Part shown: positions 19,699 to 38,034 of the stretch, one piece after another
How positions within the stretch are numbered: the stretch's first letter is position 1
Layout: each line of letters starts with the position of its first letter
From: Dehalococcoidales bacterium
GTDB lineage: Bacteria > Chloroflexota > Dehalococcoidia > Dehalococcoidales > W693
Assembly: GCA_034431095.1 (NCBI GenBank)
Contig: DAOUDM010000011.1
Span: 1 to 60,079 of the forward strand
Direction of reading: 5' to 3'
Length of the DNA stretch: 60,079 bases
Translations under genes and position numbers: made by a program
Notes under the pieces: model-generated
What the model saw: the letters and a program-made list of their open reading frames with translations, nothing else
What the model was told of the DNA's origin: nothing
Databases searched by the model: none

Positions 19699-19714
19699 CT
19701 CTGGTATCTCCTTT

Positions 19715-21715: not shown

Positions 21716-21972
21716 TGTTCTTTATTATCCTCACCTTGCTGGTTGGGTATGTATTTCTTGCCCCAGAAGAGGTGGCCGGCGATGTAGCCGAGGGCAAAAA
21801 CCAGCAGCAGCCAGAAGATCAGTGGCCACAGCCAGTAGCCCAGTATGGCGCCGGCGGCAACAAGGGTAATAATGCACAAGCCCTCGTATTTATGCCATAT
21901 ATCGCGCAGGATATAGGTCCAGGGTCGGCTGCCGATTGCCTGCCACAATGCACGGTAGATGTTTGCTAGCAT
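21712..21972 (-). CDS. Small two-TM membrane protein, holin-like
   Basis: Two hydrophobic segments and a charged C-terminus (GKKYIPNQQGEDNKEQ); located in the virion operon. Confidence 0.45.
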   Translation of the reverse strand: MLANIYRALWQAIGSRPWTYILRDIWHKYEGLCIITLVAAGAILGYWLWPLIFWLLLVFALGYIAGHLFWGKKYIPNQQGEDNKEQ

Positions 21973-21992
21973 CAGTTCTCCGAATATCTTGC

Positions 21993-22625
21993 TTATGGTC
22001 CGTAGTCGGTTGTTTTTGATACAACCGGATAGGCTGGCTTGTAGAGCTGATTTATTCTGGCCCGGTTTCTCCGCCCCAGCCGTTTGAGCTCCTGCCGGAA
22101 GTAGTCTAGGTTCTCCCTGCCCCAGCCGAGGAGCTCCCCGGGTGTTGCCGTGCCGCCGACATTAACCCGGTTGATGGCAAAGGCGGCCCATTCCACGGAG
22201 GCGTAGCCACAGGCGCCGGTAGCGATTAAGTCCTCGTAGATGGCGGGGATGGTCGAGCTTCCGGTATCAAGGGTATGGAGCTTGCCGTAGTAGATATAGG
22301 CGTTTGAGCCGTCGGGCACTTCTTCCCCCAGCAGGGTTACGGTATCCCCCCACAGGCTAAAGCGCTGATATATTTTGGGGAACCTGTCCACCGGGTATTC
22401 TACGGCTTGAACCATAATACGGTTGGTGATGGTAGATATATCAAGCTCTCTGGAGTCGGCGGTAGTAGCCTTGGTCGTTTTTTGCTCCAGTGGTATAGCC
22501 TCGGAGAGTTCCCTAGCGGCATGGGCGATGTGCCTGTCCAGCTCATCGTTGCTCCAGCGGTAGTTCTCCGAGTCCTCGTCGTGCAGGTCGCGCCTGACTA
22601 TGGCTCTCATCTCGGTCAGGTTCAT
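21993..22625 (-). CDS. Phage head-tail adaptor/connector protein
   Basis: MNLTEMRAIVRRDLHDED...WSNDELDRHI is typical of gp15/gp6-like adaptors; located downstream of the capsid gene. Confidence 0.7.
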   Translation of the reverse strand: MNLTEMRAIVRRDLHDEDSENYRWSNDELDRHIAHAARELSEAIPLEQKTTKATTADSRELDISTITNRIMVQAVEYPVDRFPKIYQRFSLWGDTVTLLGEEVPDGSNAYIYYGKLHTLDTGSSTIPAIYEDLIATGACGYASVEWAAFAINRVNVGGTATPGELLGWGRENLDYFRQELKRLGRRNRARINQLYKPAYPVVSKTTDYGP

Positions 22626-22628
22626 AGT

Positions 22629-22838
22629 TTATCTCCTAAGCCTGGCTAGTGCTTTTACCAGCTGTTTGAGTTTGGTAGTGGTTAGTTCGGCATCCGTTAA
22701 GCTGGAGAGTTGGGCGATGGTATTTTCCGCCTCCTCCCTCTCCAGCTCTTCATCGGAGACCTTATAGGGTATCTTTTCGGTTGCTATTAACTTGCTGTCT
22801 CTATAAGTCTCTATTGTTTGGTATCTTGTTTCCGGCAT
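22629..22838 (-). CDS. Hypothetical phage protein
   Basis: AGGAG RBS, in operon, tight spacing. Confidence 0.6.
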   Translation of the reverse strand: MPETRYQTIETYRDSKLIATEKIPYKVSDEELEREEAENTIAQLSSLTDAELTTTKLKQLVKALARLRR

Positions 22839-22848
22839 AATTGTCTCC

Positions 22849-23454
22849 TTAATCCAGCGATGAAACCCTTACCGCGCCATATCCGGCAGACCACTCACCA
22901 TCAGGGGTCGGGAACGGGTCGGCCAGGGCGGCGGGATTTTCCCCGCCTTTGTAGAGGCTGGCAGCAGTACCAGCTAGGTTAGTATTATTTGCCCCGATGG
23001 GGCTCCAGGCGGCAGAGTAATACCTTATAGCAGGTGTTCCATCGCTGATGACTGCTATAAAGTAGATGCCCTTGGTTAATGCCTGCCCGCCGCTGATTTG
23101 CAGAGTCTTTAAGCCGGTGCTGTCAACGGCAACGGTTCCGGCGTCAAGCAACAGGGTGCCGGGGTACAGGTTGGTCCCCACATTATAGATACCGAGACGG
23201 GCAATCTTGCCCGCGGCGGCGGCAGATGTAACCTCGATTACCAGATGGCTCAGGGTCATAGCCCTGGGGACCAGCATAAAGGTGCCGACCAGTCTGTTAG
23301 CCACTACGGTTACGGTTCCAAAGGCATAGATAGGGAGCAGTATCTGGTTTTTCCCTGTCCTCAGCCTATCCATCAGCTGGTAGCTATGGGCATCAAGGCT
23401 GGCTTCATGGTCAGCCAGTTGCCCCTCAATACATTCTCCGGCAAGTTTGAGCAT
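22849..23454 (-). CDS. Phage structural protein (head fibre/decoration-like beta-sandwich)
   Basis: IEVTSAAAAGKIARLGIY...YPGTLLLDAGTV...TGLKTLQI...KGIYFIAV is a pattern common in virion appendage proteins. Confidence 0.5.
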   Translation of the reverse strand: MLKLAGECIEGQLADHEASLDAHSYQLMDRLRTGKNQILLPIYAFGTVTVVANRLVGTFMLVPRAMTLSHLVIEVTSAAAAGKIARLGIYNVGTNLYPGTLLLDAGTVAVDSTGLKTLQISGGQALTKGIYFIAVISDGTPAIRYYSAAWSPIGANNTNLAGTAASLYKGGENPAALADPFPTPDGEWSAGYGAVRVSSLD

Positions 23455-23465
23455 AGTTTCACCTC

Positions 23466-23807
23466 CTAGCTAAGGCTATAGTCCGCCTCGAGGGAGAATG
23501 ATGTCCCCGAGAAAGCGGTCACCTTAAGAAATATGATAGCTCCTCTGGAGTCGACTATCAGGGCATGCTGTCCGGTGGCAGTGAATGTTCTCTTGCTACC
23601 TCCGAACCACTTCTCCTGCCTCGGGTTCCAGAAGATGACCTGGGTTTCGAGGCTAGTGAGGCCGGTGCCGGTGATGGTGATATCGAGGCGGCATTCTTTA
23701 TACCCTTCGCTGTCGATGGCTCCCGAGGTGTCCGCCGGGTCGGATGTGTCAACAGTGGTGATACCGCTCCGGTGGAGCTTGGGTTGTGTGACGTAAACTT
23801 CAGCCAT
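23466..23807 (-). CDS. Hypothetical phage protein (possible capsid decoration protein)
   Basis: Beta-rich 113-aa protein immediately after the capsid gene; AAGGAG RBS. Confidence 0.5.
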   Translation of the reverse strand: MAEVYVTQPKLHRSGITTVDTSDPADTSGAIDSEGYKECRLDITITGTGLTSLETQVIFWNPRQEKWFGGSKRTFTATGQHALIVDSRGAIIFLKVTAFSGTSFSLEADYSLS

Positions 23808-23859
23808 AACTTGTCTCCTTTGGGTGGGGAGGGGTTTATCCCCTCCCCACGGATTTAGT

Positions 23860-24780
23860 TTAGTCCTGGGCGCCTATCAGCGCCGCCGCTTTTACAGAGG
23901 AAAACAGTGCCAGTGAGCAGTACCACTTGACCCGGGTACGCGAGGCATCCTTGTTCTCCAGCGGGCCAATCGGCTCTACCTGGAGGAAGCCGGGGCTGGT
24001 CAAGCCGCAAAGGGCGCCTTCGCCGAGCTGGATGACGTAGATGGTGGAGCAGTCGCCGCCGGTGGTGGCTGATTCCAGGCTGTCGGTGACGATGTGGGTG
24101 TCGAGTATCCAGTCGTTGACGCCGATGGGGATGCCGTCCCATAGCTGGATGAAGTTGCCCCAGCTATCGCGGTCGGCGTCCATCATGCCGCCGGCGGCTC
24201 TGACCAGGGTGTTGATCTTACGCCGCGAGCGGCGGCTCATCAGTAGCATATCGGGCTTGCCGCCTTTTACAGCGTCGATGAGCTCATCCAGCTTATCCAG
24301 CGTCAGGGTGGCGCCGGTGGCGCCCATAGCGATAACCTGGTCGCTGGCGCTGGTGGTGTCGATGAGCAGCCTCAACCCGTCGAACTGCTTTGAGTTGGTT
24401 GCCGAGTCGCCGTAGATGAAGATTTCGTCGAACTTTTGCTTGAGCGCCTTGGCTTTGAGCTCTATGATTGCCGACTCGAGGTCCTGGACGTTGCTTCGGG
24501 TTGCCTTAAGGAAGTTGTCGACATCGGCATCGCCGCCCATTATTTTCAGGTTGGCTGTCTTTTGTTCGAAGGTCGGGGTGGACTCATCCCAGGTATCACC
24601 GACATCGTAGAAGTCGATGCTGGGCAGGGCATTCTCCTGATTGTAGGTCAGGCCGTTGCCCACGATTTCGATAAATGGTAGTTGCTGCAGGATAGGGGAG
24701 TCCTTAACGATGGTCTCCACTACCCCCTGGAGCAGTATATCGTTGGATAATTTTGATGCTTCGGCTAGGGTTAAAGCCAT
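23860..24780 (-). CDS. Major capsid protein (HK97-fold type)
   Basis: 306 aa; LPFIEIVGNGLTYNQENALP, GGDADVDNFL, FIYGDS...FDGL, TLDKLDELID, WDGIPI, RVKWYCSLAL; follows scaffold and portal. Confidence 0.88.
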   Translation of the reverse strand: MALTLAEASKLSNDILLQGVVETIVKDSPILQQLPFIEIVGNGLTYNQENALPSIDFYDVGDTWDESTPTFEQKTANLKIMGGDADVDNFLKATRSNVQDLESAIIELKAKALKQKFDEIFIYGDSATNSKQFDGLRLLIDTTSASDQVIAMGATGATLTLDKLDELIDAVKGGKPDMLLMSRRSRRKINTLVRAAGGMMDADRDSWGNFIQLWDGIPIGVNDWILDTHIVTDSLESATTGGDCSTIYVIQLGEGALCGLTSPGFLQVEPIGPLENKDASRTRVKWYCSLALFSSVKAAALIGAQD

Positions 24781-25286
24781 TATTTGTTACCTCCTATGGC
24801 GTATTGAATTTTTTCCCTGGCAGATAGAGCTGAGAAGTCGGGTGGGGTTCTCACCGGGGCGCCGGCCGGGATTCTGGTTTTGATAGCCTCAGCCTCCAGT
24901 CCCTGCCTCACCTGGCTGACCAGGTTCTTGGCTCTGGCCAGCGAGTCGTCGATTGACTCGATGGTGTCGCCGGTGATAAGTTCGGGGGGTACTTCCGGAT
25001 TGGTCTCAATCACTATGCTCTTGTAGCTCGATACCGCCTTGCTTAGCTGTTCGCCGAGCTGGTCGAGGTCTTCGCTGGACTGGGTGACGGACTGCTCCAG
25101 GGAAGCGATTTCGCTGTCTTTGTCGGCTACAGCCTGCTCCAGCTTCAAGATTTGCTGGTTCCTTGCCTCCAGCTCCCGGTCTTTCTCGGTGACCAGTTGG
25201 GTAAGCTCGGTAACTCTGGCTTCAAGCTGCCTCAGCTTCTCCTCCAAGGGATTTTGCTCTTCCTGTTTTAGCTCTTCATCAGTCAA
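24780..25286 (-). CDS. Capsid scaffolding protein
   Basis: Acidic coiled coil with C-terminal PPDFSALSAREKIQYA tail; stop overlaps the capsid start codon (TAATG). Confidence 0.75.
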   Translation of the reverse strand: MTDEELKQEEQNPLEEKLRQLEARVTELTQLVTEKDRELEARNQQILKLEQAVADKDSEIASLEQSVTQSSEDLDQLGEQLSKAVSSYKSIVIETNPEVPPELITGDTIESIDDSLARAKNLVSQVRQGLEAEAIKTRIPAGAPVRTPPDFSALSAREKIQYAIGGNK

Positions 25287-25309
25287 ATTAAATAACCCCC
25301 TTGTGATTG

Positions 25310-26695
25310 TTACAAAGCGCCTTCCACCTTGGGCTTCAAAGCTCTCTCTCGCCCGCCGCCGGCGGTAGACTTGGCACTAAGCTCTTTATTCATCTTGAGG
25401 ATGGCCTGCCTCTCCTCAAGCCACTGCTTGAACTCCATCTCCGGGTCGTTGACCCCGACCTCGTACATAGCCCGGCGCCGGGAGTGGATGCCGTTCTGAA
25501 CCAGGGTCTGCTCATTGGTGACCAGACGGCTCAGGTCTCTGGGCAACACCGGGCTCCAGACCACATCCAAACGGTGGTTGCCGAAGTCCTGGTTCTGGTA
25601 TTTCTCGATAAGCCGGAGGATGAGCTGGCCTCTCTTTTTATAGGCGGTGGTCCTGATGAGTCTCTTGCGCCACACCTTCTGCAATAGCGGTTGTAGCTCA
25701 ATCTCAAGGGCTACCCCGGAAAGGTCCCTGGAGGTGCCGCCGAAGGCAGCTCGGGGCGCCTCGGCGACATCATGCAGGGTTCGGTAAAGGAGGTCGATGT
25801 AGCTGATGTGGAGGCCGACGCCACCGCCCTGGAGCAGGTCAAGCAGGTAGGCTTTAGCATCGTCGGGTATGTTCCACACTGCCCCCGGCTTGACGGCGAT
25901 ATCCTCGGATTCCTCCACGTTCTCCAGTACGGCGATGGGGTTGCCCGATAGCTCCAGGATTCTTGATAGCTGGCTCATCGCCCGGTTCAGCTCCCGCTGT
26001 GGCTCGACGAGCTGTGCCAGATCGGATATGCCCCAGAACTTCTTCGGCTCTCTCAGGTTGGGGTAGATAACGAACGGGATAAAGCCGTAGGGGTTGGCTT
26101 TCTTCTCTACCTGGTTATCGTCCAGCCAGAGCTCGAAGTGCCCGTCTGTCCATATCTCGACGATGCTGGCTGTCTTGCCCCTGGCTTTTACCCCGTACTG
26201 GATTTCAGCCTCCTCGGCGGTCAGGTTGTACTTTGAGGCTACCCGCCATATTCGGGAGGTGTCGTCTCCCAGCCACCAGGCATAGATACCCTGGATATCG
26301 GGGGCGGTAACCCGGACGGCCTTCCTTTCCGTGTCCCAGGTAACCTTGAAGCAGGCGTCGCCGAGGATGGCGCAGTCAATCTCGGTCTCGAAGGTTAGCT
26401 GTTCCAGGTTGTTGTCCTGCTCCACCTGCCGCAGGGCGGCCTCGGCTCTCTTGGCTCTGGCTCTGGCTTCGTCCGAATCCTCCACCGCCTCGACGGTCGA
26501 GTGAACGCCGGATGACAGATAGGAAGTGACCTTGTCGATAACCACCTTGGCGTAGTTGAAGGTCAGGTGTTTCTCGCCTCGGGTGGCGCGACCTGGCCAC
26601 TGCTGGCCGCGGTAGAAATCGAGCAGCTCCCGGTACCGTTTGAGCCTGTCAAAGTCCTGCTGGTTCAACTGCATTGGGGTGAAATCATTGTTCAT
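25310..26695 (-). CDS. Phage portal protein (SPP1 gp6-like)
   Basis: 461 aa; LDFYRGQQW, TFNYAKVVIDK, AILGDACFKV, NPYGFIPFVIYPN...WGISDL, SGVALEIELQPL. Confidence 0.9.
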   Translation of the reverse strand: MNNDFTPMQLNQQDFDRLKRYRELLDFYRGQQWPGRATRGEKHLTFNYAKVVIDKVTSYLSSGVHSTVEAVEDSDEARARAKRAEAALRQVEQDNNLEQLTFETEIDCAILGDACFKVTWDTERKAVRVTAPDIQGIYAWWLGDDTSRIWRVASKYNLTAEEAEIQYGVKARGKTASIVEIWTDGHFELWLDDNQVEKKANPYGFIPFVIYPNLREPKKFWGISDLAQLVEPQRELNRAMSQLSRILELSGNPIAVLENVEESEDIAVKPGAVWNIPDDAKAYLLDLLQGGGVGLHISYIDLLYRTLHDVAEAPRAAFGGTSRDLSGVALEIELQPLLQKVWRKRLIRTTAYKKRGQLILRLIEKYQNQDFGNHRLDVVWSPVLPRDLSRLVTNEQTLVQNGIHSRRRAMYEVGVNDPEMEFKQWLEERQAILKMNKELSAKSTAGGGRERALKPKVEGAL

Positions 26696-26709
26696 CTTTT
26701 ATCCTTTGT

Positions 26710-27015
26710 TTAAAAATCTTGGTCTTCCTGATGAGTGTTCCGGTAGTTCTTCAGCACCCTCTGGACGGTGCGCTGGCTGATGCTGAATGCTATCGCCAGC
26801 TCTTTTACTCCTCTGCCCTCTTTCTGGAACTGGTGCAGTATCTGCCGGTCACGGCGGCTCTTGAGCAGGTGCTGCTTGCCTCTGGGCACGTCGTAGATGC
26901 ATCCGGGGAAGGGACAATTGAGACAGGATTCAGCCAGTTCACAGCCTTCATCTTTGTAATGACAATACTCCGGTGGTAAATCTATCTCAGTGTAAAACGT
27001 CGGCTCCAGTTCCAT
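26710..27015 (-). CDS. Cys-cluster + HTH DNA-binding protein (candidate late-gene regulator); track start 27024
   Basis: C-x6-C-x5-C-x2-C-x4-C followed by GVKELAIAFSISQRTVQRVL HTH; first gene of the virion operon. Confidence 0.7.
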   Translation of the reverse strand: MELEPTFYTEIDLPPEYCHYKDEGCELAESCLNCPFPGCIYDVPRGKQHLLKSRRDRQILHQFQKEGRGVKELAIAFSISQRTVQRVLKNYRNTHQEDQDF

Positions 27016-27049
27016 AACACTCAATCCAAAAAGCTCACTGAGTGGTAAA

Positions 27050-27078
27050 ATAATAGCACATATGTTCTATTCGGTCAA
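27050..27078 (-). promoter_or_regulatory. Promoter of the virion operon with a LexA-like (GAAC-N4-GTTC) box between -35 and -10
   Basis: Minus strand TTGACC-17 bp-TATTAT with extended TGn; AGAACATATGTGCT (27068-27055) lies inside it. Confidence 0.7.
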
Positions 27079-27148
27079 CACTTTTTTGTCGTCTGGGAGG
27101 CTAACCATTCTGTCTTATTTGCGTTATAGTTAGTAGGCTCGTTGATGC

Positions 27149-27177
27149 TTGACAAAGGAGGATATTGGTGCTATTAT
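27149..27177 (+). promoter_or_regulatory. sigma70 promoter for the HTH + surface protein operon
   Basis: TTGACA (27149)-17 bp-TATTAT (27172), extended -10 TGc. Confidence 0.7.
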
Positions 27178-27212
27178 TGTTTTGACAAAGTAATATTTAC
27201 TTTTCTAGTATT

Positions 27213-27416
27213 ATGGTACCTTTAGATAACTACTATAATGTGATGGAAGCCGGTCATCGTCTCAAGATTCATCCGGAAACGGTGAAACGCCTGTGCCGGC
27301 AGAAAGACCTGCCGGCGATAAAGTTGCATAATACCTGGTTGATTGACAAGGATGACCTTGACAACTTCGCCGGGACCTACGTCCCGAGGCGCGGTGCTAA
27401 AAGGAAACTGATATAG
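27213..27416 (+). CDS. Excisionase/MerR-like winged HTH (HTH_17) protein
   Basis: YYNVMEAGHRLKIHPETVKRLCRQKDLPAIKLHNTWLIDKDDL. Confidence 0.85.
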   Translation: MVPLDNYYNVMEAGHRLKIHPETVKRLCRQKDLPAIKLHNTWLIDKDDLDNFAGTYVPRRGAKRKLI

Positions 27417-27437
27417 AAAACTTATAAGGGAGGAAAC

Positions 27438-29852
27438 ATGGTGAAAGATAAAAAGGTTTTTCGAATACTGGCAGTGACTTTGACTTTGGCGTTACTGCTG
27501 ATGGCGATACCGGCGTCGCTGGTCCTGGCGGCGGCAAGTCTTAATCTTACCCCGGACGAAGGCGAGGTTGGTGATGACGTTCAAGTTAATGGCACGGGTT
27601 TTAATACAGGCCTGAGCCTCATTCTTTATTTCTCCAGCCAGCCGGCTGAGGTGGGCGATGATATCAATACCGATGTTACCATCTATAAGCAGGTAAATAC
27701 AGCTGGTACGCCTGTGAGTCCCAATTTTGTTAAAAACTTTCTGGTGCCGGAAGTTCTTAGCCAGGGCCCTGGTACCGATGAAGATGTTCACGACGGCAGG
27801 TATTATGTATATGTTACCAATGATATTTCAGAGTATATACTGGCCAAGGCTTACTTTACCGTCGTTGGCTTTGGTACTATTGAGTTAAGCGATGATGAAG
27901 GCACGGTTGGTACCGAGATTGACATCACCGGTGGTGGCTTTGCTGCAGATGAAGATCTTTCCGTGGAGTTTGGCGGCGATGAAGTGGATATTGAATCTGG
28001 TGATGAGGTAACCGATGAAGACGGTGAATTTATCCTATCCATTATTATCCCGGATGCCATTTTTGGTGACCATACTATAGCTGTTATCGGTGGAGAGTCT
28101 CTGGCAGAGGTTAGCGATACATTTACTGTGATGTCAGATATAACAGTTAATCCTGTGCAAGGGCTGCCGGGCGATGAGCTGACATTATATGGCACCGGTT
28201 TTGATAAAAGGAATGGTGTGGATTTCTATTTTGGTGGTACCCCGATTACTGTTGAATGGATTGTTGATGCTGCCCGCAGTAAGACCAACAACGACGGTTA
28301 TTTTGCCGTAAAGATTACCGTACCCGATGTTGATGTCGGTGCCTATACCATTCTGGCCGAGGATGAGGATGACGATGATATCTCAGCACAGGTAACCTTC
28401 ACCGTGACAGAGCCATCGTTAAACCCGGTTATCGTCGTTGACCCCACCAGTGCCAATGTCGACGACGAGGTTGAGGTTAGCGGGACGGAGTTCGCTCCCG
28501 GCGATACCGTGACCATCTACTTTGACGATGAAGTTGTCGACACGACTACCACCTTGACTGACGGCAGCTTCACCGGTTCCTTTGATATTCCCGAGAGTGT
28601 CAATGGCAGTCATACCATAAAGGCTGAGGATACTGATGGTGGGGTGGCGACAGCAACGATAACCGTAGAGCCGAAGATAGCCTTTGACATTGAAGAAGGC
28701 CCGGGCGGTACCGAGGTAACGGTAACCGGCACCGGCTTCGGCTACCGGAGCGATATTGAGACCATTGAATTTGATAGTACCGATGTTGATATAGAGAGCG
28801 GTGATGATAGGTCTGGTACGGATGGCAGTTTTGAGTTCAGCTTCATAGTGCCGGCGGTTGGAGCCGGCAGTTATGATGTAACGGTCGAGGATGAAGACGG
28901 CAACTCCGCCGAGGCCGAGTTCACCGTGGTGGCCGCCGCGGCCAGCATTACTCCAACCAGCGGAGTGGGCGGCACTGAAATTACAGTTACCGGTGTTAAC
29001 TTTATCGCCGGTGCTGAAGTTACCATTTCTTATGATGGTGTTGACATTACTACTGCTACTGCCGGTAGTGATGGAACAGTATCAGCTACATTCGATGCTC
29101 CTGCCGGCGCCGGTGGGGTACACAATGTAACCATAAGTGATGGAATAAACGATCCCGATGCTGAATTTACAGTTACTGCTGAAGCTTCTATCAATCCAGT
29201 TAGCGGTAATGTAGGCAGTGCGATTACGGTGAGTGGTAATGGCTTTGGCGCCAGCAAGCCGATAACCATCACCTATGATGGCAGTGTCGTTACCCCGATG
29301 GCGACAATCGTAACTCTGGTTGACGGCAGCTTCAGCGGCAGTTTTATCGCTCCTGTCAGCACTGGCGGTAGCCACGTTATAACCGTCAGCGATGGCGTCA
29401 ACCCTCCTAAGCAGTTTACCTTTACCATGGAGACAACCAAACCGCCGACGCCCCAGCAACTTCCGCTTGGGACGGATAAGCCCAAGCAGCCGATTACCTT
29501 TGATTGGAGCGATGTCACCGATGCCAGTATGCCGGTAACATATAGTCTCCAGGTTGCTACCGATGCCAGCTACGGCAATATAGTGATTGATAAGATGGGG
29601 CTTGCCGGGTCTGAATACACCCTTCTCGAAGAGGAGGAGCTTGAGCCTGTTGGTAAGGATAGCCCTTACTACTGGAGAATAAGCTCAACAGATGCTGCCA
29701 GCAATAGCAGTGACTGGGGTCCCAGCGCCACCTTCTATATTGGTGGCGGTTGGCCCGGCTGGCTGATGTGGCTCTGGATTGGGCTGGGGGCACTGACGCT
29801 CGGTATATTCTTCTTCTGGCTGGGTAGGAGAATAGCCTTTAGCTCCTACTAA
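27438..29852 (+). CDS. Large acidic cell-surface protein: signal peptide, ~7 IPT/TIG Ig-like repeats, FN3-like module, C-terminal membrane anchor
   Basis: Seven P-x2-G-x2-G-x-(E/D)-V-x-V-x-G-x-GF repeats, FDWSDV...YYWRI module, and a Trp-rich TM segment ending GRRIAFSSY. Confidence 0.85.
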   Translation: MVKDKKVFRILAVTLTLALLLMAIPASLVLAAASLNLTPDEGEVGDDVQVNGTGFNTGLSLILYFSSQPAEVGDDINTDVTIYKQVNTAGTPVSPNFVKNFLVPEVLSQGPGTDEDVHDGRYYVYVTNDISEYILAKAYFTVVGFGTIELSDDEGTVGTEIDITGGGFAADEDLSVEFGGDEVDIESGDEVTDEDGEFILSIIIPDAIFGDHTIAVIGGESLAEVSDTFTVMSDITVNPVQGLPGDELTLYGTGFDKRNGVDFYFGGTPITVEWIVDAARSKTNNDGYFAVKITVPDVDVGAYTILAEDEDDDDISAQVTFTVTEPSLNPVIVVDPTSANVDDEVEVSGTEFAPGDTVTIYFDDEVVDTTTTLTDGSFTGSFDIPESVNGSHTIKAEDTDGGVATATITVEPKIAFDIEEGPGGTEVTVTGTGFGYRSDIETIEFDSTDVDIESGDDRSGTDGSFEFSFIVPAVGAGSYDVTVEDEDGNSAEAEFTVVAAAASITPTSGVGGTEITVTGVNFIAGAEVTISYDGVDITTATAGSDGTVSATFDAPAGAGGVHNVTISDGINDPDAEFTVTAEASINPVSGNVGSAITVSGNGFGASKPITITYDGSVVTPMATIVTLVDGSFSGSFIAPVSTGGSHVITVSDGVNPPKQFTFTMETTKPPTPQQLPLGTDKPKQPITFDWSDVTDASMPVTYSLQVATDASYGNIVIDKMGLAGSEYTLLEEEELEPVGKDSPYYWRISSTDAASNSSDWGPSATFYIGGGWPGWLMWLWIGLGALTLGIFFFWLGRRIAFSSY

Positions 29853-29878
29853 TATATCTTGATAATACAGGAAATAGC

Positions 29879-29915
29879 ATCCCCCCTCCCTGATTTACGG
29901 GAGGGGGATTTTTTT
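29879..29915 (+). terminator. Rho-independent terminator after the surface protein gene
   Basis: ATCCCCCCTCCC...GGGAGGGGGAT followed by a T run. Confidence 0.75.
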
Positions 29916-30031
29916 AATGAAAGAGGGAGCTGAAAGCCCCCTCTTAGACTTTTCCCCCTGCCTTGCTATGCAGAATACTATTGGACAAATGTGGTATAAT
30001 TAACATAACGAAATATTAGCTTGAAGATGCT

Positions 30032-31138
30032 GTGAAAGAAGATGAGAATATATTCCCATCATTACTAGAAAAGGTACTTGTAGACATTTGGGGAGGTGGT
30101 GGAGACCGTCTTAGCACACTTCATCTTAAAAAAACACGCACAGCGACTTCTCATATTCGAAGTATCTATAGGCATAAGGGTGAGCACGGTACTATCCAAC
30201 CTTCCAGAATAAATTACCAATTTAAGCAAAATAGGGCTGGATATTTAGCTGCCTTTGGGGAAAGGCATGCTTATCTATCCTACTTACATTTAAATAAAGT
30301 ACAAAGCAAAAATCCTGAAGCAATACCAAAGCCTCGTGGCAAGAGAAACGAATTGGTAGTTACTTCTTTGGGAGCTGGAGCTTGTGTTGAGTTATTTGGC
30401 ATATGTCTTTTCTATTTATCAGGTGCAGGTCGTCAATCGCTTCTTTTAAAATTAAACTCTGTAGAAAAAGAGCGTGAATGGAATTCAAGCCAACATATTG
30501 TATTTACTAGAGTCCTAAAAGATATTTTTCCGAAAGTAGATGTTGATAAAATTGATGTTGCAGTAGATTTGAAAGAGGATGCAATACCTGCATTCTCTAA
30601 TCAATATGATAGGCTCACCAACACCGATATATTGCTTATTTACAACGTTTTAAATGAAATCCCATCAACTTATGCGAATAAAGTATGGAGAAATATTAAA
30701 TTTTTAATAGACATATTCCAGAGGCCAGTTCTTATTCTTCTTATGGAACCTTCTGCTTCGCGAGCGGAACCTCGTATATATCGAATAAAGGAACAACTCA
30801 TTCAACAAACTGATTTGATTGAAGAAAACAAGGAAGAAATATTTTATTTTAATGAAGCACCTGTTTGCATCAAGAAGAGCAATTCTGAAGATGATTTAAA
30901 CTATCGGTTATTTGGACCTAGCACTGATAGCTCGCAGCCTGATTTCGAGACGTCAATTTCGAGAGCACACATGTCTTCTGTGAAGAAACCAGATTCACCA
31001 ATAACCATGGAACAAGTGGCTTTGCAGCTTTCGAAGTTGGGTATTAAGAGAGGGAGAAAAGGAGCAAGTGCGTTTCGGCGCCCTAGAGTAGGGCCACAAT
31101 ATACGTTTGTCTCTGTTAGTGATGATTGGAAATTGTAA
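30032..31138 (+). CDS. Putative class I SAM-dependent methyltransferase, Rsm22-like; AT-rich insert (GTG start)
   Basis: VTSLGAGACVE (motif I-like), DILLIYNVLNEI and LILLMEPS resemble the Rsm22 DLVIASxVLNEL / LVxIEPG motifs; visibly AT-richer than the flanks. Confidence 0.55.
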   Translation: MKEDENIFPSLLEKVLVDIWGGGGDRLSTLHLKKTRTATSHIRSIYRHKGEHGTIQPSRINYQFKQNRAGYLAAFGERHAYLSYLHLNKVQSKNPEAIPKPRGKRNELVVTSLGAGACVELFGICLFYLSGAGRQSLLLKLNSVEKEREWNSSQHIVFTRVLKDIFPKVDVDKIDVAVDLKEDAIPAFSNQYDRLTNTDILLIYNVLNEIPSTYANKVWRNIKFLIDIFQRPVLILLMEPSASRAEPRIYRIKEQLIQQTDLIEENKEEIFYFNEAPVCIKKSNSEDDLNYRLFGPSTDSSQPDFETSISRAHMSSVKKPDSPITMEQVALQLSKLGIKRGRKGASAFRRPRVGPQYTFVSVSDDWKL

Positions 31139-31237
31139 TGAAAAGGTGGTAGTATAACATTTAACTACACCTTGTAATATATACAATTGCTGCTTGACTT
31201 GGTTTAGCGCTATTGCTTTTTGCACAATCTTACCCCC

Positions 31238-32671
31238 TCACTCCCTAACACTCCCCACCGCTGTTTTCCTCTCGTATTGGTTAGCTGCTTCAACCAGCAG
31301 TGCCAGGCTCATCAGGAAGTCGTCGTGCCCCTGTGACGGGTCGACATAAAAATTCATTGTCTGGTTGGGGCGGTACTGGTTTCTGGCTTTTTCCATCTGT
31401 AACCAGAACTCTCGGTATTCCGCTGAGCCGTCGCCGGCATACACCTTCAGCCGGCCCGAGTTAATAGCCGCCAGCAGGTTGAAGCCCAGCTTTGACTTGG
31501 AACCGGTGGTGAAGGTGAACGGGGAGACTTTTGAACCCAGTGACTTCCTAAGGAAGGAGCTTACCGGCTGGCCGACGCCGGTGGCATCGACCACTACCCG
31601 TCGGCAGTGCCATACATTACCCAGGATGTCGATAAGCTGATGGTAGAGCTCGGAGTGCTTTTTACCGGTCCACCAGTAGTGCTCGACGATATTTACCCTG
31701 GGCTGTTTCTGAACTTCGTCGCTGACCGAGAAGTCCAGTTCGCCGATGGTAACCACGGTCGAGTCCTTGAGCGGCTTTAGAGCTCTCAGGGTAGCTCCCT
31801 CCGCCTCCTCTGCCTCACCGGCAAGGTCGATGCCGGCGATATAGGTTTTGCCCGGCTCGGGCTGGTGTTTTCTCGGGTGCTTCCCCTGTAGCTGTGCCCT
31901 CTGTTGATGGCTTAAGAAGCCACCGCCGCCATGTATGGGTAACAGGCAGTACTGGGTCAGGAAAAGTGGGTGGTTCTCCCCCAAACGCTCACGCTCCGCC
32001 TGGACATAGGCTAGATAATCGGGGTTGTATTTGGCTACTTCCTGCCAGTCGAATCGGAAGTGGCGTTTGGTGCCGTCTTTCCTCTCCAGTTCCAGGTTGG
32101 TCTGCTTTATCTCCTCGAGCAGGGTCAGGTCGTCCCAGGTGGTGCCGTAGTGAATGGTGGTGACATTGGTTGTCGCCCCCATAGGTTTGAACTCCTTGGT
32201 GTATTTCGCCTTGCTTACATCTTGGGACTCGTCTATCTCCAGGAGTATGTGAGCCGTGTTACCAACGACGTTAGCCGATTCGTCGGCGGAAAGGAATATA
32301 GCCCTGGCATTATATAGCCTGATGATATAGCCCATCTCGGATGTCCAGACGCCAGCAAAACCGGCATCGTTCAGCCTGTCCTTGAGCCGCGTCATAGAGA
32401 TGACCGTCTGCGGTTTGAAGGTGGGGGCACACTTAATCAGGTTCTGCGGTGTCGCCGTCATGAAGAGGGTCACAAGCAACAGCTCAAGCTGGGCGGATAG
32501 CTCGTTCTTGCCTCCCTGGCGGGCGATCTCGACGGAGAAGGTAATGCCCTTCCTGCCGAAAACGCTGTCCAGTATAGCCAGTGCCACCTCTCTCTGGTAG
32601 GGGCGGAGTCTATTTATCAATGAAGCTTCCGATGCCGATGCCCAGCGGTAGGGCAACATCCCGGAGGACAT
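31238..32671 (-). CDS. Terminase large subunit
   Basis: LRPYQ, Walker A ARQGGKNE, Walker B LEIDESQ, GTT coupling motif, nuclease acidic residues GIDLAG, VDATGVG and HDDFLMS all present. Exact start uncertain. Confidence 0.92.
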   Translation of the reverse strand: MSSGMLPYRWASASEASLINRLRPYQREVALAILDSVFGRKGITFSVEIARQGGKNELSAQLELLLVTLFMTATPQNLIKCAPTFKPQTVISMTRLKDRLNDAGFAGVWTSEMGYIIRLYNARAIFLSADESANVVGNTAHILLEIDESQDVSKAKYTKEFKPMGATTNVTTIHYGTTWDDLTLLEEIKQTNLELERKDGTKRHFRFDWQEVAKYNPDYLAYVQAERERLGENHPLFLTQYCLLPIHGGGGFLSHQQRAQLQGKHPRKHQPEPGKTYIAGIDLAGEAEEAEGATLRALKPLKDSTVVTIGELDFSVSDEVQKQPRVNIVEHYWWTGKKHSELYHQLIDILGNVWHCRRVVVDATGVGQPVSSFLRKSLGSKVSPFTFTTGSKSKLGFNLLAAINSGRLKVYAGDGSAEYREFWLQMEKARNQYRPNQTMNFYVDPSQGHDDFLMSLALLVEAANQYERKTAVGSVRE

Positions 32672-32975
32672 TGGTGATCGCCTCCTTCAGGCTCCTCTTG
32701 TCCTCCTTGCTGATGTTGTATCTGGTTCTGACCAGCCGGGCCAGAGTATTGGTTGCCTGTATAATGAGCTTTATATTTTGCGGGTCGTGGGCAACGACGG
32801 ACTTAATCTTGGTTCTAAGCAGGGCGATCTCATCGTCGATACCCTCGACGCGGGTGGCTAGCTCGAAATCGAGCTGTTCCGCCTCATCGAGCACCCTGGA
32901 GTAGAAGCCGTGCTTTCTAGCGTTTTGATTGCCTCTGGGGGCGCCTCTTTTTATTTTCTCTGTATTCTCCGGCAT
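32610..32975 (-). CDS. Terminase small subunit
   Basis: KRGAPRGNQNARKHGFYS N-terminal TerS motif; AAAGGAG RBS before ATG 32975; directly upstream of terL. Confidence 0.8.
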   Translation of the reverse strand: MPENTEKIKRGAPRGNQNARKHGFYSRVLDEAEQLDFELATRVEGIDDEIALLRTKIKSVVAHDPQNIKLIIQATNTLARLVRTRYNISKEDKRSLKEAITNVLRDVALPLGIGIGSFIDK

Positions 32976-33078
32976 ATAGTCTGTCTCCTTTGTCAAGGAG
33001 CTCGGCAGTGGTCAGGACAATAATGTGAGCCGCCAACTCCCATCTCTGGTTTTCTATGGCTAATCTCAGCAGTTTCAT
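32917..33078 (-). CDS. Unannotated 53-aa protein overlapping terS (MKLLRLAIENQRWELAAHIIVLTTAELLDKGDRLYAGEYRENKKRRPQRQSKR)
   Basis: Strong SD AAGGAGGAGG before ATG 33078; first ORF after the LexA-box promoter; below the 60-aa track cut-off. Confidence 0.6.
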   Translation of the reverse strand: MKLLRLAIENQRWELAAHIIVLTTAELLDKGDRLYAGEYRENKKRRPQRQSKR

Positions 33079-34375: not shown

Positions 34376-34729
34376 GGCTAAGTAAACCGGGTAACCGCCC
34401 CTTCTTCGAAGGGGAGGAAAGTCCGAGCTCCACCGGGCAGGGTGCTGGGTAACGCCCAGGAGGGGTGACCCTACGGATAGTGCCACAGAAACATACCGTC
34501 CTTCGGCTGAAGGATAAGGGTGAAATGGTGAGGTAAGAGCTCACCAGCGGCCGGGTGACCGGTCGGCTGGGTAAACCCCACCCGGAGCAAGACCGAATAG
34601 AGGGACAAAAGGACGCCCGGCCTGTCCCCGGGTTGGTCGCTTGACCCTGCTGGTAACAGCAGGGCTAGATAGATGGTTACCGCCCTTCCTCGGAAGGGTA
34701 CAGAACTCGGCTTACAGGTTTACTTAGCC
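34376..34729 (+). ncRNA. rnpB: RNase P RNA (bacterial type A)
   Basis: GAGGAAAGTCC, AGTGCCACAGAAA, GGGTGAAA, GGTAAACCCC...GAGCAAG and ACAGAACTCGGCTTA conserved regions; 5' GGCTAAGTAAACC pairs with 3' GGTTTACTTAGCC; promoter TTGACT (34340)-17 bp-TAGAGT. Confidence 0.98.
34704..34729 (+). repeat. attL (3' end of rnpB)
   Basis: AACTCGGCTTACAGGTTTACTTAGCC, identical to 38009-38034. Confidence 0.92.
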
Positions 34730-35175
34730 TAAACACTATTGTCACTTTCTGTCCTCCTTCTATTTGAGCGGCTGGTCCTCTATATTAGCCATTTTTTAAG
34801 CTCTTGATTCCATTATGCCATTCTCTTTTGAATAATATAGCCATGGCACCTGGCTGTCAATATAGTTCTACACTGTGGTTGACTATATGTCAATAGAGGT
34901 TAATAAACACTGGGGTTGACAAAAGGGTTAATAGGGGCTGATAAAAGGGTTGAAAATGAATACGTAAAGGAAAGGTAGTTTTCTACTCGAGAAACTATCT
35001 GACGGTTTGTTAGGTAACATTTCGATGAAATGTTATTTCCATTTTGCCCTTTTTAGGAAAGCAATTTAATTAATAATCCCTGTATTTATTATGATAAGAT
35101 AACTTCAAATCTATTCATCGTATTTTTAATTGTGTCACCGGTGTAAAAAACATACAAAGAAAAGGCAATTAAAAT

Positions 35176-35584
35176 TGACCTGCCCCCATAAGGTGTACCA
35201 CTTGTTAAGTTAGAGTTACCGGTATTATAGCCTCAGGAGCTGGTGGCTGATCTTAGTCTTGATAACTCCATTCTCAAAGAGGCAGCCCAGGGAAACTCCT
35301 AAGCCCGTCCAAAAGGCGAAGGGTGATAATCCGCGTAAGCGAGTCATTTCATATCTCCCAGAGGCGGGCATGCCGGGTGCTGAGGCAGGCCAGGTCTACT
35401 CAGAGGCGTATTCTCCGTACCAGCTGCGAAGAGGACAGACTGGTGACGTGCATTATTAATCTGGCCACTAAGTATGGCAGATACGGATATCGCAGGATAA
35501 CAGCTCTGTTGCGTAATGAAGGCTGGAAGGTAAACCACAAGAGGGTGGAGAGGATATGGAGGAGGGAAGGACCTAAGGTGCCCA
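35176..35584 (+). pseudogene. Rearranged IS3-family remnant (IS end fused to orfA C-terminus and orfB N-terminus)
   Basis: Starts TGACCTGCCCCCATAAGGTGTACCAC, then ELVADLSLDNSILKEAAQGNS*, slippery GGGAAAC (35290-35296) and orfB YGRYGYRRITALLRNEGWKVNHKRVERIWRREG; truncated after KVP. Confidence 0.85.
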
Positions 35585-35788
35585 ATATGTCTTGCTAGCA
35601 CCGCTGGGTAACGATCAGCCAGAAAGCGACTCACTTTGTTGGTAGTCTGAGCAGGAATCTTTACTCATGTGTGTTGCTCCCCAGTAATGCTTTTAGGGAG
35701 TGGAGTGAACAGATACCAATAGCTGAAGTTCTTTACATGGAGATGCGTTAGTCTGTTTTTCGATGCCGGGCAGGTGGGAGCAGGTGTA

Positions 35789-36343
35789 TCATTGGAGAAG
35801 CTTTGGGTTGAGAAAGACATTAGCTACATTGGGATCAAATTGAGTACCTGTACAGAACACTATATCAGCGCGTGCGGCTTCAGGGCTCATTGCCTCCCGG
35901 TACGGATGCCCAGATGTCATAGCATCATAGGCTTCAGCCAGCGCCAAGATTCTAGCTCCCAGTGGTATTTGCTCGTCGTGTAGCCCGTCCGGATAGCCTC
36001 CACCATCATAGCGCTCGTGGTGATGCTTGACCATCTTCAAAATGCTCTCATCCTTTATCATGGAAGCTAGAATACGTTCACCCATTTCACAGTGGTATGT
36101 TATATGACGATACTCAGCCTCGGTAAGCCGCTCCTGTTTGCTCAGAACAGATTCCCCCACTTCCATCATACCAATATCATGAGTCAACCCAGCTAGTCTT
36201 ACCTTCTCAATATCATCCTGCGGCAGGCCTAGCCCTTGGGCTATAGCTACAGCTATTTCGGCTACCCTCTTCGAATGATCACCTAGCTCTTTAGAAAAAG
36301 AGTCAAATATCTTTTTCGCCTGTTTCTCAACAATACGCCGCAT
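35789..36343 (-). CDS. Stand-alone HD-GYP domain protein (putative cyclic dinucleotide phosphodiesterase)
   Basis: HSKRVA, LTHDIG, HHERYDGGGYPDGL, IPLGARIL, GTQFDP. Confidence 0.9.
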   Translation of the reverse strand: MRRIVEKQAKKIFDSFSKELGDHSKRVAEIAVAIAQGLGLPQDDIEKVRLAGLTHDIGMMEVGESVLSKQERLTEAEYRHITYHCEMGERILASMIKDESILKMVKHHHERYDGGGYPDGLHDEQIPLGARILALAEAYDAMTSGHPYREAMSPEAARADIVFCTGTQFDPNVANVFLNPKLLQ

Positions 36344-36566
36344 TTTTCTGTGCCTCCTTGGTCATATACTCGAAAACACTATGCATCTCACCTCCAGCCA
36401 ACACCTATAACCCTATATATGATACATTCTGAGAATAACTCTATCAACTAGGACTCATTTGCCCATTGAAGATTAAGGATACATTTCATCTTTTTGTGAC
36501 CGATTATAAAGCTAGTTGGCTATTACAAATAATGATAACAGCTATCTATAATCATAAATGGTTCAC

Positions 36567-37057
36567 TGGCCTGCCCCCATAAGGTGTACCACCTATAGAG
36601 TTAGAGTCTCGACCATTTTAGCTTCAGGAGCTGGTGGCTTATAACCCAGAGAACTATGTGGTCTTACCTGATTGTATTCCATCCTCCACTCCTCAATCAA
36701 TACCCTGGCCTCTATCAACGTTGTAAATATCTCCTTGTTAAGAAGTTCATCCCTTAGCTTACCATTGAATGACTTGATATATCCATTCTCCCATGGACTT
36801 CCCGGCTCTATAAACAGGGTCTTCACTCCCAAACGACTAGGCCAGTTTCTTATCTACCTGGCGGTAAATTCTGTGCCATTATCTGAGCGGATATGCTCCG
36901 GTATTCCCCTGAGTATAAACAGGTTAAACAGCTGGTCGATGACATCCTGGGAGGAAATACGGCGGCTGCTCCGGAGTGTAAGCCTTCTTGGCCATTTATC
37001 CCCCTTTTATCCTCCAGTCTAACATTAAGACCGGACTACTTTTTGGGGGGCAGGTCA
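36567..37057 (-). mobile_element. 491-bp internally deleted IS3-family element with both terminal IRs and a 4-bp target duplication
   Basis: Ends TGACCTGCCCCC / TGGCCTGCCCCC; TCAC duplicated at 36563-36566 and 37058-37061; orfA start MAKKAYTPEQ fused to the integrase core (IRSDNGTEF, PGSPWENGYIKSFNGKLRDE, RPHSSLGY) with an in-frame stop. Confidence 0.88.
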
Positions 37058-37120
37058 TCACGTTCCTCTATCATATACGATTCCTCATTTTACCTATCAA
37101 TTTTGGGTGATCTTACTCAA

Positions 37121-37912
37121 TCACACTTTCTGACGAAATGTGCAGGTCACAAGATATAGGGCGGTTGTGTCCGGTGATTGATGCCCTAGTAACTTCTGTA
37201 CATCTCTCAAGTTTGCCCCAGATTCTAGCAGCTGGGTCGCAAAATAATGACGCGGACAATGAGGATGAAAACCCTCCAAGCCACAAGCCTTGGCCAAACT
37301 GGTGACTATTCTATAAAAAATGCGGCCATTAAGGCCATCAAAGACTCTTTCCCTCGCTACCTTGCTGGCGCACTGCTCACGTAGCGGAAGGATGGTCCTT
37401 TCGGCCATGGGTATTACCCTATCCCGCTGCCCTTTTCCTTGGCGCACCAAGATGCGGCGATTATTGAAATCAGTATCGCTAACCAGCAGGCTAAGCAATT
37501 CGCTCTTGCGAAGGCCGGTATAGCCTAGTACTAGGATCAGGTTTTTATTTCTCCGTTTCTGCGCTCCAGTTTGATGGCAAAGCCCTGTCTCAGCCTGCTT
37601 AACCAGTGCCTCATAGTCGCCCCTGTCATGGTAGGGTGGCAGCATTACGGGCTTTTGTAGCTTAATTTTAAGGTGCTCACCAATAAACTCGAAGAATGGC
37701 CTCAGGGCGTGGTAGTAGACCAGGAGCGACTTTGGCTGATAGCCCCTGTCTCTGAGGTGGGCTATGAATTCCTTGGCATTGGCAGCACTTGGCTCCTTAC
37801 CGGAGAGCCATTTACTGTAGCCTTCTAATATTTGCCGATACTTCGCCACTGTGCTACGATTAAGGTCGTCCTGCTTTAGCCTTTGGTAGTAATCTTTAAG
37901 GAGTGTTGCCAT
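37121..37912 (-). CDS. Tyrosine recombinase/integrase (XerC/D-like, SAM-like N-domain); track start 37942
   Basis: TGLRKSEL (R), GKG (K), HCPRH (HxxR), LGH and TTALY (Y) all present. HxLRH has L>P and the extreme C-terminus may be replaced by foreign sequence. Confidence 0.9.
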   Translation of the reverse strand: MATLLKDYYQRLKQDDLNRSTVAKYRQILEGYSKWLSGKEPSAANAKEFIAHLRDRGYQPKSLLVYYHALRPFFEFIGEHLKIKLQKPVMLPPYHDRGDYEALVKQAETGLCHQTGAQKRRNKNLILVLGYTGLRKSELLSLLVSDTDFNNRRILVRQGKGQRDRVIPMAERTILPLREQCASKVARERVFDGLNGRIFYRIVTSLAKACGLEGFHPHCPRHYFATQLLESGANLRDVQKLLGHQSPDTTALYLVTCTFRQKV

Positions 37913-38008
37913 ATCTAAAGGATAACACTTGCCAGCTGGCAAACTGTCTACAAGCTGGGAGCAAAGACTTTTGGCAACTGCCCGAATCTGGCTTTCAGAT
38001 AGTCCTGT

Positions 38009-38034
38009 AACTCGGCTTACAGGTTTACTTAGCC
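38009..38034 (+). repeat. attR (displaced 3' end of rnpB)
   Basis: Identical 26-mer. The following C restores a Watson-Crick pair with the 5' GGGC of rnpB, suggesting this is the original terminus. Confidence 0.9.

Follow-up and report, generated by a model that had tools for sequence, protein, structure and literature searches.

This study concerns rnpB, which encodes the RNA of RNase P, of a Dehalococcoidales bacterium (Chloroflexota) and the 3.3-kilobase (kb) segment that follows it, which is very probably what is left of an integrative element that used the 3' end of rnpB as its attachment site. The window, that is, the whole stretch of DNA that was analysed, comprises 60,079 nucleotides (nt) of contig DAOUDM010000011.1 (NCBI GenBank assembly GCA_034431095.1). 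Within these 60 kb, exactly two copies of a 26-mer, AACTCGGCTTACAGGTTTACTTAGCC, are present (34704-34729 and 38009-38034), each of them on the + strand. A third copy is absent when up to 3 mismatches are allowed, and 100 dinucleotide shuffles gave 0 matches. The Rfam model of bacterial class A RNase P RNA (RF00010, model positions 1-367) matches 34379-34730 with 322.6 bits, against a gathering score of 100, and without truncation. Given this full-length match, the proximal copy of the repeat is the final 26 nt of rnpB. No tRNA or tmRNA gene was found in the window.

The ribozyme gene remains whole at this junction. Its P1 helix consists of 13 Watson-Crick pairs (34376-34388 with 34717-34729) plus a terminal G.U, and P1 and the P4 3' strand are both intact as the gene stands after the insertion. 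In both copies of the repeat the P1 3' strand is CTTAGCC, the exact complement of the P1 5' strand of this same gene (GGCTAAG), and this version is specific to the genome, since all relatives carry CTTGACC or CTTGGCC. The base 3' of the repeat is T34730 at the proximal junction (attL) and C38035 at the distal junction (attR). C38035 could form a G-C pair with G34375 and lengthen the 13-bp P1, whereas T34730 gives the G.U pair. The preliminary description of the locus had claimed that the last 26 nt of rnpB are duplicated 3.3 kb downstream, that a tyrosine integrase adjoins the distal copy, that the proximal copy rebuilds the P4 and P1 3' strands so that the ribozyme stays intact, and that the distal copy keeps the C that pairs with the 5' strand. 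The exact repeat, the full-length RF00010 match, the 13-bp P1, the two alternative terminal pairs and the integrase match described next agree with all four.

The integrase gene (int) lies inside the segment and starts 66-96 nt from attR. Its open reading frame (ORF) matches PF00589 (1.9e-31, 109.6 bits against a cut-off of 27.1) and also encodes a SAM-like N-terminal domain; the gene call of an independent assembly puts its start at ATG 37912. The catalytic residues R145, K170, H228, R231, H254 and Y263 are all present and are invariant across an alignment of 37 members. Directly after Y263 the family consensus is lost, a stop codon follows 10 residues on, and the conserved tail of ~20-30 residues is gone: where a complete C-terminal segment would follow the consensus IYLDVxxxHLxxxxxLLD, the window protein reads LYLVTCTFRQKV and ends. 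Judged from this truncation, the window integrase is probably inactive. A perfect 14-nt palindrome (TTGCCAGCTGGCAA, 37927-37944) extends over the int start region; it accounts for a conserved 'PAG' that appears when the region before the likely start codon is translated, and it may act as an operator or a binding site.

A homologue search against 5.8 billion proteins returned ~98 homologues with E <1e-34 (34-70% identity), after which matches fall sharply to ~30% identity and E 1e-17, a break that marks a distinct integrase family. Loci of the relatives, designated here by L numbers, were taken from genomes, metagenomes and viral contigs and scanned for rnpB by Rfam, an nhmmer profile and the core motif. 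We then counted the assessable loci in which an rnpB 3' end lies no more than 450 nt upstream of int, according to identity to the window integrase. The rnpB 3' end adjoins int in 22 of 22 loci with integrases at least 50% identical (the window and 21 others), in 19 of 21 at 40-50%, in 11 of 54 at 33-40% and in 0 of 83 below 33%, and six further loci with at least 50% identity, fetched later, have the same linkage pattern. These counts support the proposal, made from the window sequence, of an rnpB-specific integrase subfamily.

The linked loci have two geometries. In type A (22 loci and L328-L331) a complete rnpB is followed by int on the same strand. In type B there is only the 26-27-nt fragment, ~90-120 nt upstream of int and on the strand opposite to it; the window, L085/L086/L091, L102-L119, L332/L333, phage-linked groups and others belong here. 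Upstream of rnpB, type A loci have terS-CT398-RNaseH, a run of rpoA-truA-rplM-rpsI-glycosylase-panC (L083), a solute-binding protein gene (L001), radical SAM and hypothetical genes (L328), cobalamin genes with CT398 (L329) or polA/fpg (L330). Judged from these contexts, at least six in number, the pairing of int tracks rnpB itself and not any neighbourhood. In a neighbour-joining tree the window protein belongs to clade I, all members of which are rnpB-linked and whose neighbours, where preserved, are not phage genes: a small ORF, proteins of ~590 and ~320 amino acids (aa) and a second integrase that bears a zinc ribbon. The intact counterpart of the window segment is L332/L333, with the same arm, the same S41 peptidase flank, a full-length int of 293 aa and the backbone genes.

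A second occupied site was found in a related species from an independent NCBI assembly (L319; PheS 81% and S41 peptidase 75% identical to the window). A single contig there carries an rnpB 3' end whose core lies at 173 and, 5.6 kb further on, a second core at 5773 that is followed by the genes o205-S41-pheS-pheT. Window positions 34532-34789 are 89.7% identical to L319 1-258, including ~60 nt past rnpB, and 37894-38034 are 90.8% identical to L319 5658-5798. The L319 int is reduced to its first ~20 nt, and the genes in the interior show no relationship to those of the window. Given that the arms are shared and the decay is different, the insertion is older than the split of the two species. 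The element seems to have carried more of rnpB than the repeat, since the flank directly downstream of the rebuilt gene in the window (flank F) resembles the sequence that follows the distal core in L319 (F'; 83% identity over window 34706-34802). Flank F thus seems to be a captured rnpB terminator region that travelled with the 26 nt on the element, and it probably terminates the rebuilt rnpB.

Comparison of all fragment-bearing loci gives the attachment site a consistent anatomy. Similarity to rnpB begins at the same nucleotide in every one of them (AA followed by CTCGGCTTA). On the element side the site reads CCTGTAA-CTCGGC-TTACAGG in the window, L091 and L332 and CCTATAA-CTCGGC-TTATAGG in L232 and L324, a 7-nt inverted repeat around a 6-nt spacer, and other lineages match 5-6 of the 7 positions. 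Dyad symmetry is therefore 5-7 of 7 on the element side, against 2-4 of 7 on the rnpB side (TACAGAA). An inverted repeat flanking a short spacer is the usual core anatomy of tyrosine recombinases, and because the element-side repeat has it, we infer that strand exchange occurs within CTCGGC. The two L319 cores differ at positions 2 and 12, which flank CTCGGC; the G at position 2 of the distal core is absent from all rnpB genes, which places the exchange to the right of position 2. CTCGG is complementary to CCGAG at 34422-34426 (within 34416-34428), and we take the CTCGGC hexamer to lie in the 3' strand of P4, in the catalytic core of the ribozyme. Half-sites of the element and rnpB sides also show purine/pyrimidine covariation (CCTGTAA/TTACAGG versus CCTATAA/TTATAGG), which is suggestive in the few independent cases at hand.

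Relatives of the element also exist in free form, and attP-type arrangements were found in L326, L324 and L265. In L326, an IMG/VR contig of 14,029 nt, the first and last 119 nt are identical, which leaves a circle of 13,910 nt; identical contig ends are the usual sign of a circular molecule. Its fragment (CACAT followed by AACTCGGCTTACAGGTCTACTTGTCC) lies 100 nt upstream of int, and it encodes the integrase, an N6/N4 DNA methylase, a ParB-like helix-turn-helix (HTH) protein and otherwise unknown proteins. L265, also from IMG/VR, has identical 127-nt ends and carries the rnpB fragment. Judged by their ends, both are probably circular, with L326 measuring 13.9 kb and L265 ~13.0 kb. L324 belongs to a family of tailed phages and is a permuted contig that starts with o666 and small genes over ~5 kb, continues with the fragment and int, and then has terS, terL, portal, scaffold and capsid, so that the fragment has element genes on both sides, as expected of attP. 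A further contig of this phage family, L314 (18.5 kb), both starts and finishes in o666, which indicates a circular genome of ~18 kb. In deposited phage genomes the best match reaches 31% identity for terL and 30% for int, so that no named relative was found there. In sister integrase subclades of the phage family the targets differ: an ORF of ~630 aa lies upstream of int in L131 and L128, and L136 has no more than a fragment of that ORF. A tRNA gene lies directly upstream of int in L004.

The features of the segment and its surroundings are collected in Table 1. The interior of the segment is mostly debris. A complete IS3-family insertion sequence (IS) has OrfA and OrfB, a DDE domain and two terminal inverted repeats; here there are three fragments in mixed orientation, one of them with an in-frame stop. 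Frame 1 of the OrfB fragment continues upstream as GIPEHIRSDNGTEFTAR followed by a stop, and the fragment lies ~110 nt from the truncated end of int. The HD-domain protein has no tblastn match in related loci, the AT-rich stretch 34803-35175 has no homologue among the fetched loci, and the islet interior as a whole has a single match in related loci, a 95-nt stretch in L095 that overlaps the upstream edge of the IS3 fragment. Short direct repeats are clustered in 34855-34951, where the two repeats listed in the table and TGTCAATAKAG each occur twice; these may have served the lost element as arm-type or iteron-like sites.

Table 1. Coordinates of the rnpB segment, its junctions and neighbouring features in the window.
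Feature	Position	Strand	Remarks
rnpB, RNase P RNA class A	34379..34730	+	RF00010; P1 5' strand begins 34375/34376; last 26 nt predicted to be element-supplied
attL identity block	34704..34729	+	exact repeat; same rnpB start position in all fragment-bearing relatives
attL substructure	34699-34705; 34706-34711; 34712-34718		TACAGAA, rnpB-side half-site (34699-34705); CTCGGC, inferred overlap (34706-34711); TTACAGG (34712-34718); then P1 3' strand
Flank F, predicted to be element-supplied	34731..34802	+	terminator-like hairpin 34770-34790, then T run (terminator scan)
AT-rich non-coding stretch	34803..35175	.	short direct repeats: GGGGYTGAYAAAAGGGTT x2, ACACTGKGGTTGAC x2
IS3-family fragment: last ~20 codons of transposase and IS end	35176..35258	-	81.6% identical copy of 36567-36642
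IS3-family fragment: OrfA end and OrfB N-terminus (HTH_21)	35259..35598	+ (opposite orientation)	PF13276 7.4e-15; frame translations
HD-domain protein (HD_5, HD-GYP-like), 184 aa	35789..36343	-	PF13487 4.8e-37; sole intact gene within the segment
IS3 OrfB fragment, 5'-truncated, DDE C-terminal part, rve_3	36568..37010	-	PF13683 1.6e-29 for 36593-36832; in-frame stop
Tyrosine integrase	37121..37942	-	likely start ATG 37912, 263 aa
Element arm between int and core	37943..38008	-	90.6-90.8% identical to L319; near-identical to L332/L333 beside the core
attR and arm	38004-38010; 38011-38016; 38017-38023		CCTGTAA (38004-38010), CTCGGC (38011-38016), TTACAGG (38017-38023); perfect 7-nt inverted repeat
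attR identity block, displaced native rnpB 3' end	38009..38034	+	followed by the native base C38035
Phage packaging and head module (context, outside the islet)	19486..32996	-	terS, terL, portal, scaffold, major capsid, adaptor, tail protein, o666 (666 aa)
Insert interrupting the module, between terL and portal	26710..31138	+	804-aa TIG/Ig protein; 368-aa protein without family match

Taken together, we are confident that 34731-38008 is the decayed remnant of an integrative element that entered by recombination of its attP with the 3' end of rnpB, by means of its own tyrosine integrase. The attP of the element would have carried the last 26 nt of rnpB (P4 3' strand, linker and P1 3' strand) and a terminator-bearing flank. 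The integrase would have joined attP to the rnpB 3' end by exchange in CTCGGC, between an element side with a perfect CCTGTAA/TTACAGG pair and an rnpB side with an imperfect left half-site, TACAGAA. In this scenario, the ribozyme gene would since then have read through attL and flank F, both supplied by the element, and the native 3' end would have been pushed to attR, beside int. Later, the C-terminus of int would have been lost to an IS3-associated deletion, and the island genes would have been replaced by IS fragments and the HD-domain gene; given these two losses, the element is probably immobile now. The window segment is thus a fossil of a clade-I-type island, not a working islet. The rnpB-targeting insertion originally proposed is supported, with the qualification that this copy has decayed: int is truncated here, the interior is reduced to IS3 debris and an HD-domain gene, and the int of L319 is gone.

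Several observations weigh against this interpretation. A second assembly of the same sample (ENA ERZ23486252), 100% identical in sequence, is split at the locus, with one scaffold ending at 34477, inside rnpB, and the next starting at 36410. The attR side (int-fragment-o205) has therefore been assembled twice, and attL and 34478-36409 are present on the window contig alone, so that the attL junction and the IS-rich interior could hold mis-joins at IS repeats. No empty attB was found among five contigs with o205 homologues, where L319 proved to be the second occupied site. The closest o205 relatives, L320-L323 (PheS up to 90% identical), keep o205-S41-pheST and have neither rnpB nor the fragment upstream of o205, which indicates that the position of rnpB relative to these genes is unconserved even among near relatives. 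In type A loci (L019, L093, L096, L014, L328 and L330) neither an exact match of at least 13 nt to the rnpB tail nor a second match to the core motif was found within up to 10 kb; because of this, the case for type A loci as islands is argued from the way their content varies and from the diversity of their host contexts. Nor does the interior of the window segment hold any backbone gene of the related islands. Finally, the crossover position was derived from symmetry and a single pair of diverged cores.

The intact phage packaging and head module on the 5' side of CT398-RNaseH-rnpB also has to be accounted for. The same module is found in ~18-kb phages with the order int-X-terS-...-o666. In comparison with these free relatives, the window-like module is without int, without the replication genes of the X region (RepO-like and Pol-beta-like) and without the ~5 kb that follows o666 (g1..gN). 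The locus does not hold a complete prophage, since the head and packaging genes lie outside the repeats and the X region and g1..gN are missing. An integrated phage should sit 3' of rnpB, yet the module sits 5' of it, with terS abutting CT398 on the 5' side both in the window and in all seven type A loci with the CT398 context. At the far end of the module neither a second rnpB nor a second core nor a duplicate of CT398/RNaseH was found. Capture of the rnpB block in the manner of lambda gal, followed by loss of the duplicate, would fit this position, as would a retained, domesticated remnant.

Some features of the module differ between genomes. In L096 (6099-7952) terL and terS alone adjoin CT398, with portal and capsid genes not upstream, which indicates that the stage of decay is not the same everywhere. 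The insert that interrupts the window module at 26710-31138 also has small genes for an HTH_17 protein (+) and a Mor-like protein (-). Ig-domain genes occur at the same module position in L179 and L191, and within a rearranged module in L311. We rejected the idea that CT398-RNaseH-rnpB-int is one mobile phage genome: the regions after int share nothing with the regions after o666 of the phage contigs, and this int clade also follows rnpB in the ribosomal-protein context.

The presence of this module suggests an alternative origin for the segment itself, in which int and the distal fragment would be the right end of a once complete ~18-kb prophage, with its head module now at 19.5-33 kb. rnpB would have come to lie between terS and int by a rearrangement, such as an aberrant excision that took CT398-RNaseH-rnpB along and then inserted again, and the 3.3-kb islet would be the leftover int-proximal phage region rather than a separate island. 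More than 20 loci read fragment(-)-int-X-terS-terL-portal-MCP-o666 (MCP, major capsid protein), and the window matches this order when its minus strand is read, except that rnpB-RNaseH-CT398 and debris stand where X would be. An rnpB-type attP is used by L232 and L324 (terL 74-78% identical), the mobile elements most closely related to the window module. In L003 the S41 peptidase gene directly adjoins such a prophage at its int end; in the window, o205 lies between the two. We nevertheless consider this origin improbable. The window int belongs to clade I, with its int-small ORF-590 aa-320 aa-second integrase arrangement, and is 33-45% identical to the phage-linked clade II, and L332 combines the arm and S41 flank of the window with island backbone genes and has neither terS nor terL. 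Moreover, the array terL(-) terS(-) CT398 RNaseH rnpB recurs in seven loci with an 'rnpB then int(+)' island opposite, so that the position of the module is independent of the window int.

That the repeat arose in assembly, from a chimeric contig joined across rnpB or IS repeats with copies that are not really 3.3 kb apart, is very unlikely, even with the two breaks in the second assembly, an L319 contig that starts inside rnpB and IS fragments that are oddly joined head to tail in the interior. The distal P1 strand, CTTAGCC, complements the P1 5' strand of this very gene and differs from that of all relatives. L319 has the rnpB 3' end, island, arm, core and o205 on one independent contig with arms 90% identical, and the attR side was assembled identically twice. 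An artefact could have changed how long the interior is, but attL and attR would exist all the same. The independent assembly breaks inside rnpB and just upstream of the HD gene, and L319 begins inside rnpB as well; conserved rnpB appears to be an assembly break point in these metagenomes.

Least credible of all is a resident, host-domesticated Xer-like recombinase that is merely syntenic with rnpB, with the repeat made by local duplication or IS-mediated rearrangement, because, for all that the protein is small with a XerC/D-like architecture, that most close homologues lie directly 3' of rnpB with no distal repeat visible within 10 kb and that IS3 fragments lie inside the segment, synteny cannot explain a pairing of rnpB with int across at least six unrelated upstream contexts, the 26-27-nt fragment is found beside int without the rest of rnpB on circular or permuted contigs, the fragment boundary is the same rnpB nucleotide in all lineages with the inverted repeat on the element side, and the target duplications that IS3 elements leave span a few bp rather than 26.

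Returning to the integrated element and its relatives, it is possible, and we offer this tentatively, that in Dehalococcoidia mobile elements of several unrelated kinds share the rnpB 3' end as a landing pad. They would repeatedly exchange the P4 and P1 3' strands and the terminator of the ribozyme gene for foreign copies, which would make chimeric RNase P RNAs, and would capture host DNA that flanks rnpB; the intact module fixed 5' of rnpB in one host lineage would then be a product of capture, and might be a domesticated, particle-forming remnant. The kinds in question are integrase-bearing islands, circular elements of 13-14 kb and ~18-kb temperate tailed phages. The earlier suggestion of a cargo hotspot stands in part: the content 3' of rnpB-int varies between loci and includes ~18-kb phages, and a distal repeat was seen in no locus other than the window and L319. 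Several loci have a hybrid P1 helix that contains G.U pairs. In L083, L084, L090, L092, L093 and L096 the P1 5' strand GGTCAAG lies opposite CTTGGCC, which gives a G.U pair (L096 has a mismatch). We would expect such a hybrid P1, and thus a chimeric RNase P RNA, had the 3' strand been supplied by an element that formerly lived in another host.

With regard to capture, the first gene after attL in L319 (707-1162, Metallophos_2) has homologues 47-51% identical on the host side of the fragment in L104 (399-851), L112 (5455-5907) and L117 (1143-1589). This hints that the island picked up genes downstream of rnpB from a former host. The situation is reminiscent of specialised transduction of gal and bio by lambda, both in this gene and in the element's 26-nt core with ~70 nt of rnpB downstream flank F, terminator included, which is homologous to the native F' in L319. 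It differs in that capture is deduced here from sequence comparison.

tRNA and tmRNA genes are textbook targets of integration, which takes place in their 3' ends. Among such tyrosine integrase systems, the available parts of two reports cover tRNA and tmRNA 3'-end islands, including the Dehalococcoides ssrA islands with vcrABC (PMC4383910, PMC3146451). The rnpB system resembles these islands, of the Islander (tDNA) type, in that a tyrosine integrase targets the 3' end of a conserved structured RNA gene, the element brings its own copy of that end, the gene is rebuilt at one end and intact there, a displaced fragment of its 3' end lies in direct orientation at the other (in the window and also in L319), and int lies inside the element near one end. 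It differs in that the target is rnpB rather than a tRNA or tmRNA gene, with a crossover that probably falls in the P4 3' strand, in that the window copy is a fossil, and in that a single integrase clade includes members with the core in either orientation relative to int. The rnpB system is the tRNA/tmRNA-island paradigm on another RNA gene and, because the target is rnpB, lies outside the tDNA class.

The integrases themselves are like XerC, XerD and similar simple tyrosine recombinases, with ~280-300 aa, a SAM-like core-binding domain, a catalytic domain and no recognisable arm-binding domain, and the inferred core of 7 + 6 + 7 nt is also similar. They are ~30% identical or less to annotated Xer proteins and phage integrases and, unlike XerC/XerD with their dif-type chromosomal function, are found on mobile elements beside an rnpB fragment.

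A precedent for a housekeeping RNA gene outside the tRNA class is Enterococcus phage phiEf11, whose integration into ffs, the 4.5S RNA gene, was presented as novel in 2025 (PMC12540744). As far as the available part of that report goes, the two systems have in common a non-tRNA housekeeping RNA gene as attB and an identical core (~27 nt in phiEf11) close to the integrase gene; they differ in the RNA gene and host phylum, and in that the att sites of phiEf11 were confirmed by PCR, whereas the evidence here is comparative. The same part of PMC12540744 lists tRNA/tmRNA and csRNA as known non-coding RNA targets, with rnpB unmentioned there as one, and states that an updated Phage_Finder includes RNase P models among the candidates to test. 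In the literature that we searched, 33 papers name rnpB as well as integrase and none describes rnpB as an attachment site; in the papers examined that mention it, rnpB serves as a phylogenetic marker, a control for quantitative PCR or an annotation item. Large island databases may hold undescribed rnpB islands. The preliminary description called rnpB a rarely reported target. Within the limits of this literature, rarely becomes not at all.

Evidence for the use of rnpB comes from a whole integrase family and not from one case: it draws on more than 50 loci in several host contexts, circular forms included. The family core lies within the most conserved stretch of the ribozyme (ACAGAACUCGGCUUA). 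Comparative data thus support the view that an integrase family with several element types uses the 3' end of rnpB as attB across Dehalococcoidia. Island and prophage finders that are restricted to tRNA and tmRNA genes miss such elements. Dehalococcoidia are hard to manipulate genetically, and this family offers integrases with a ready-made, single-copy attB for them. The analysis also identifies an uncharacterised family of small temperate phages of Dehalococcoidia together with its attachment site, and raises the question of how much foreign P1 and P4 sequence an essential ribozyme can tolerate.

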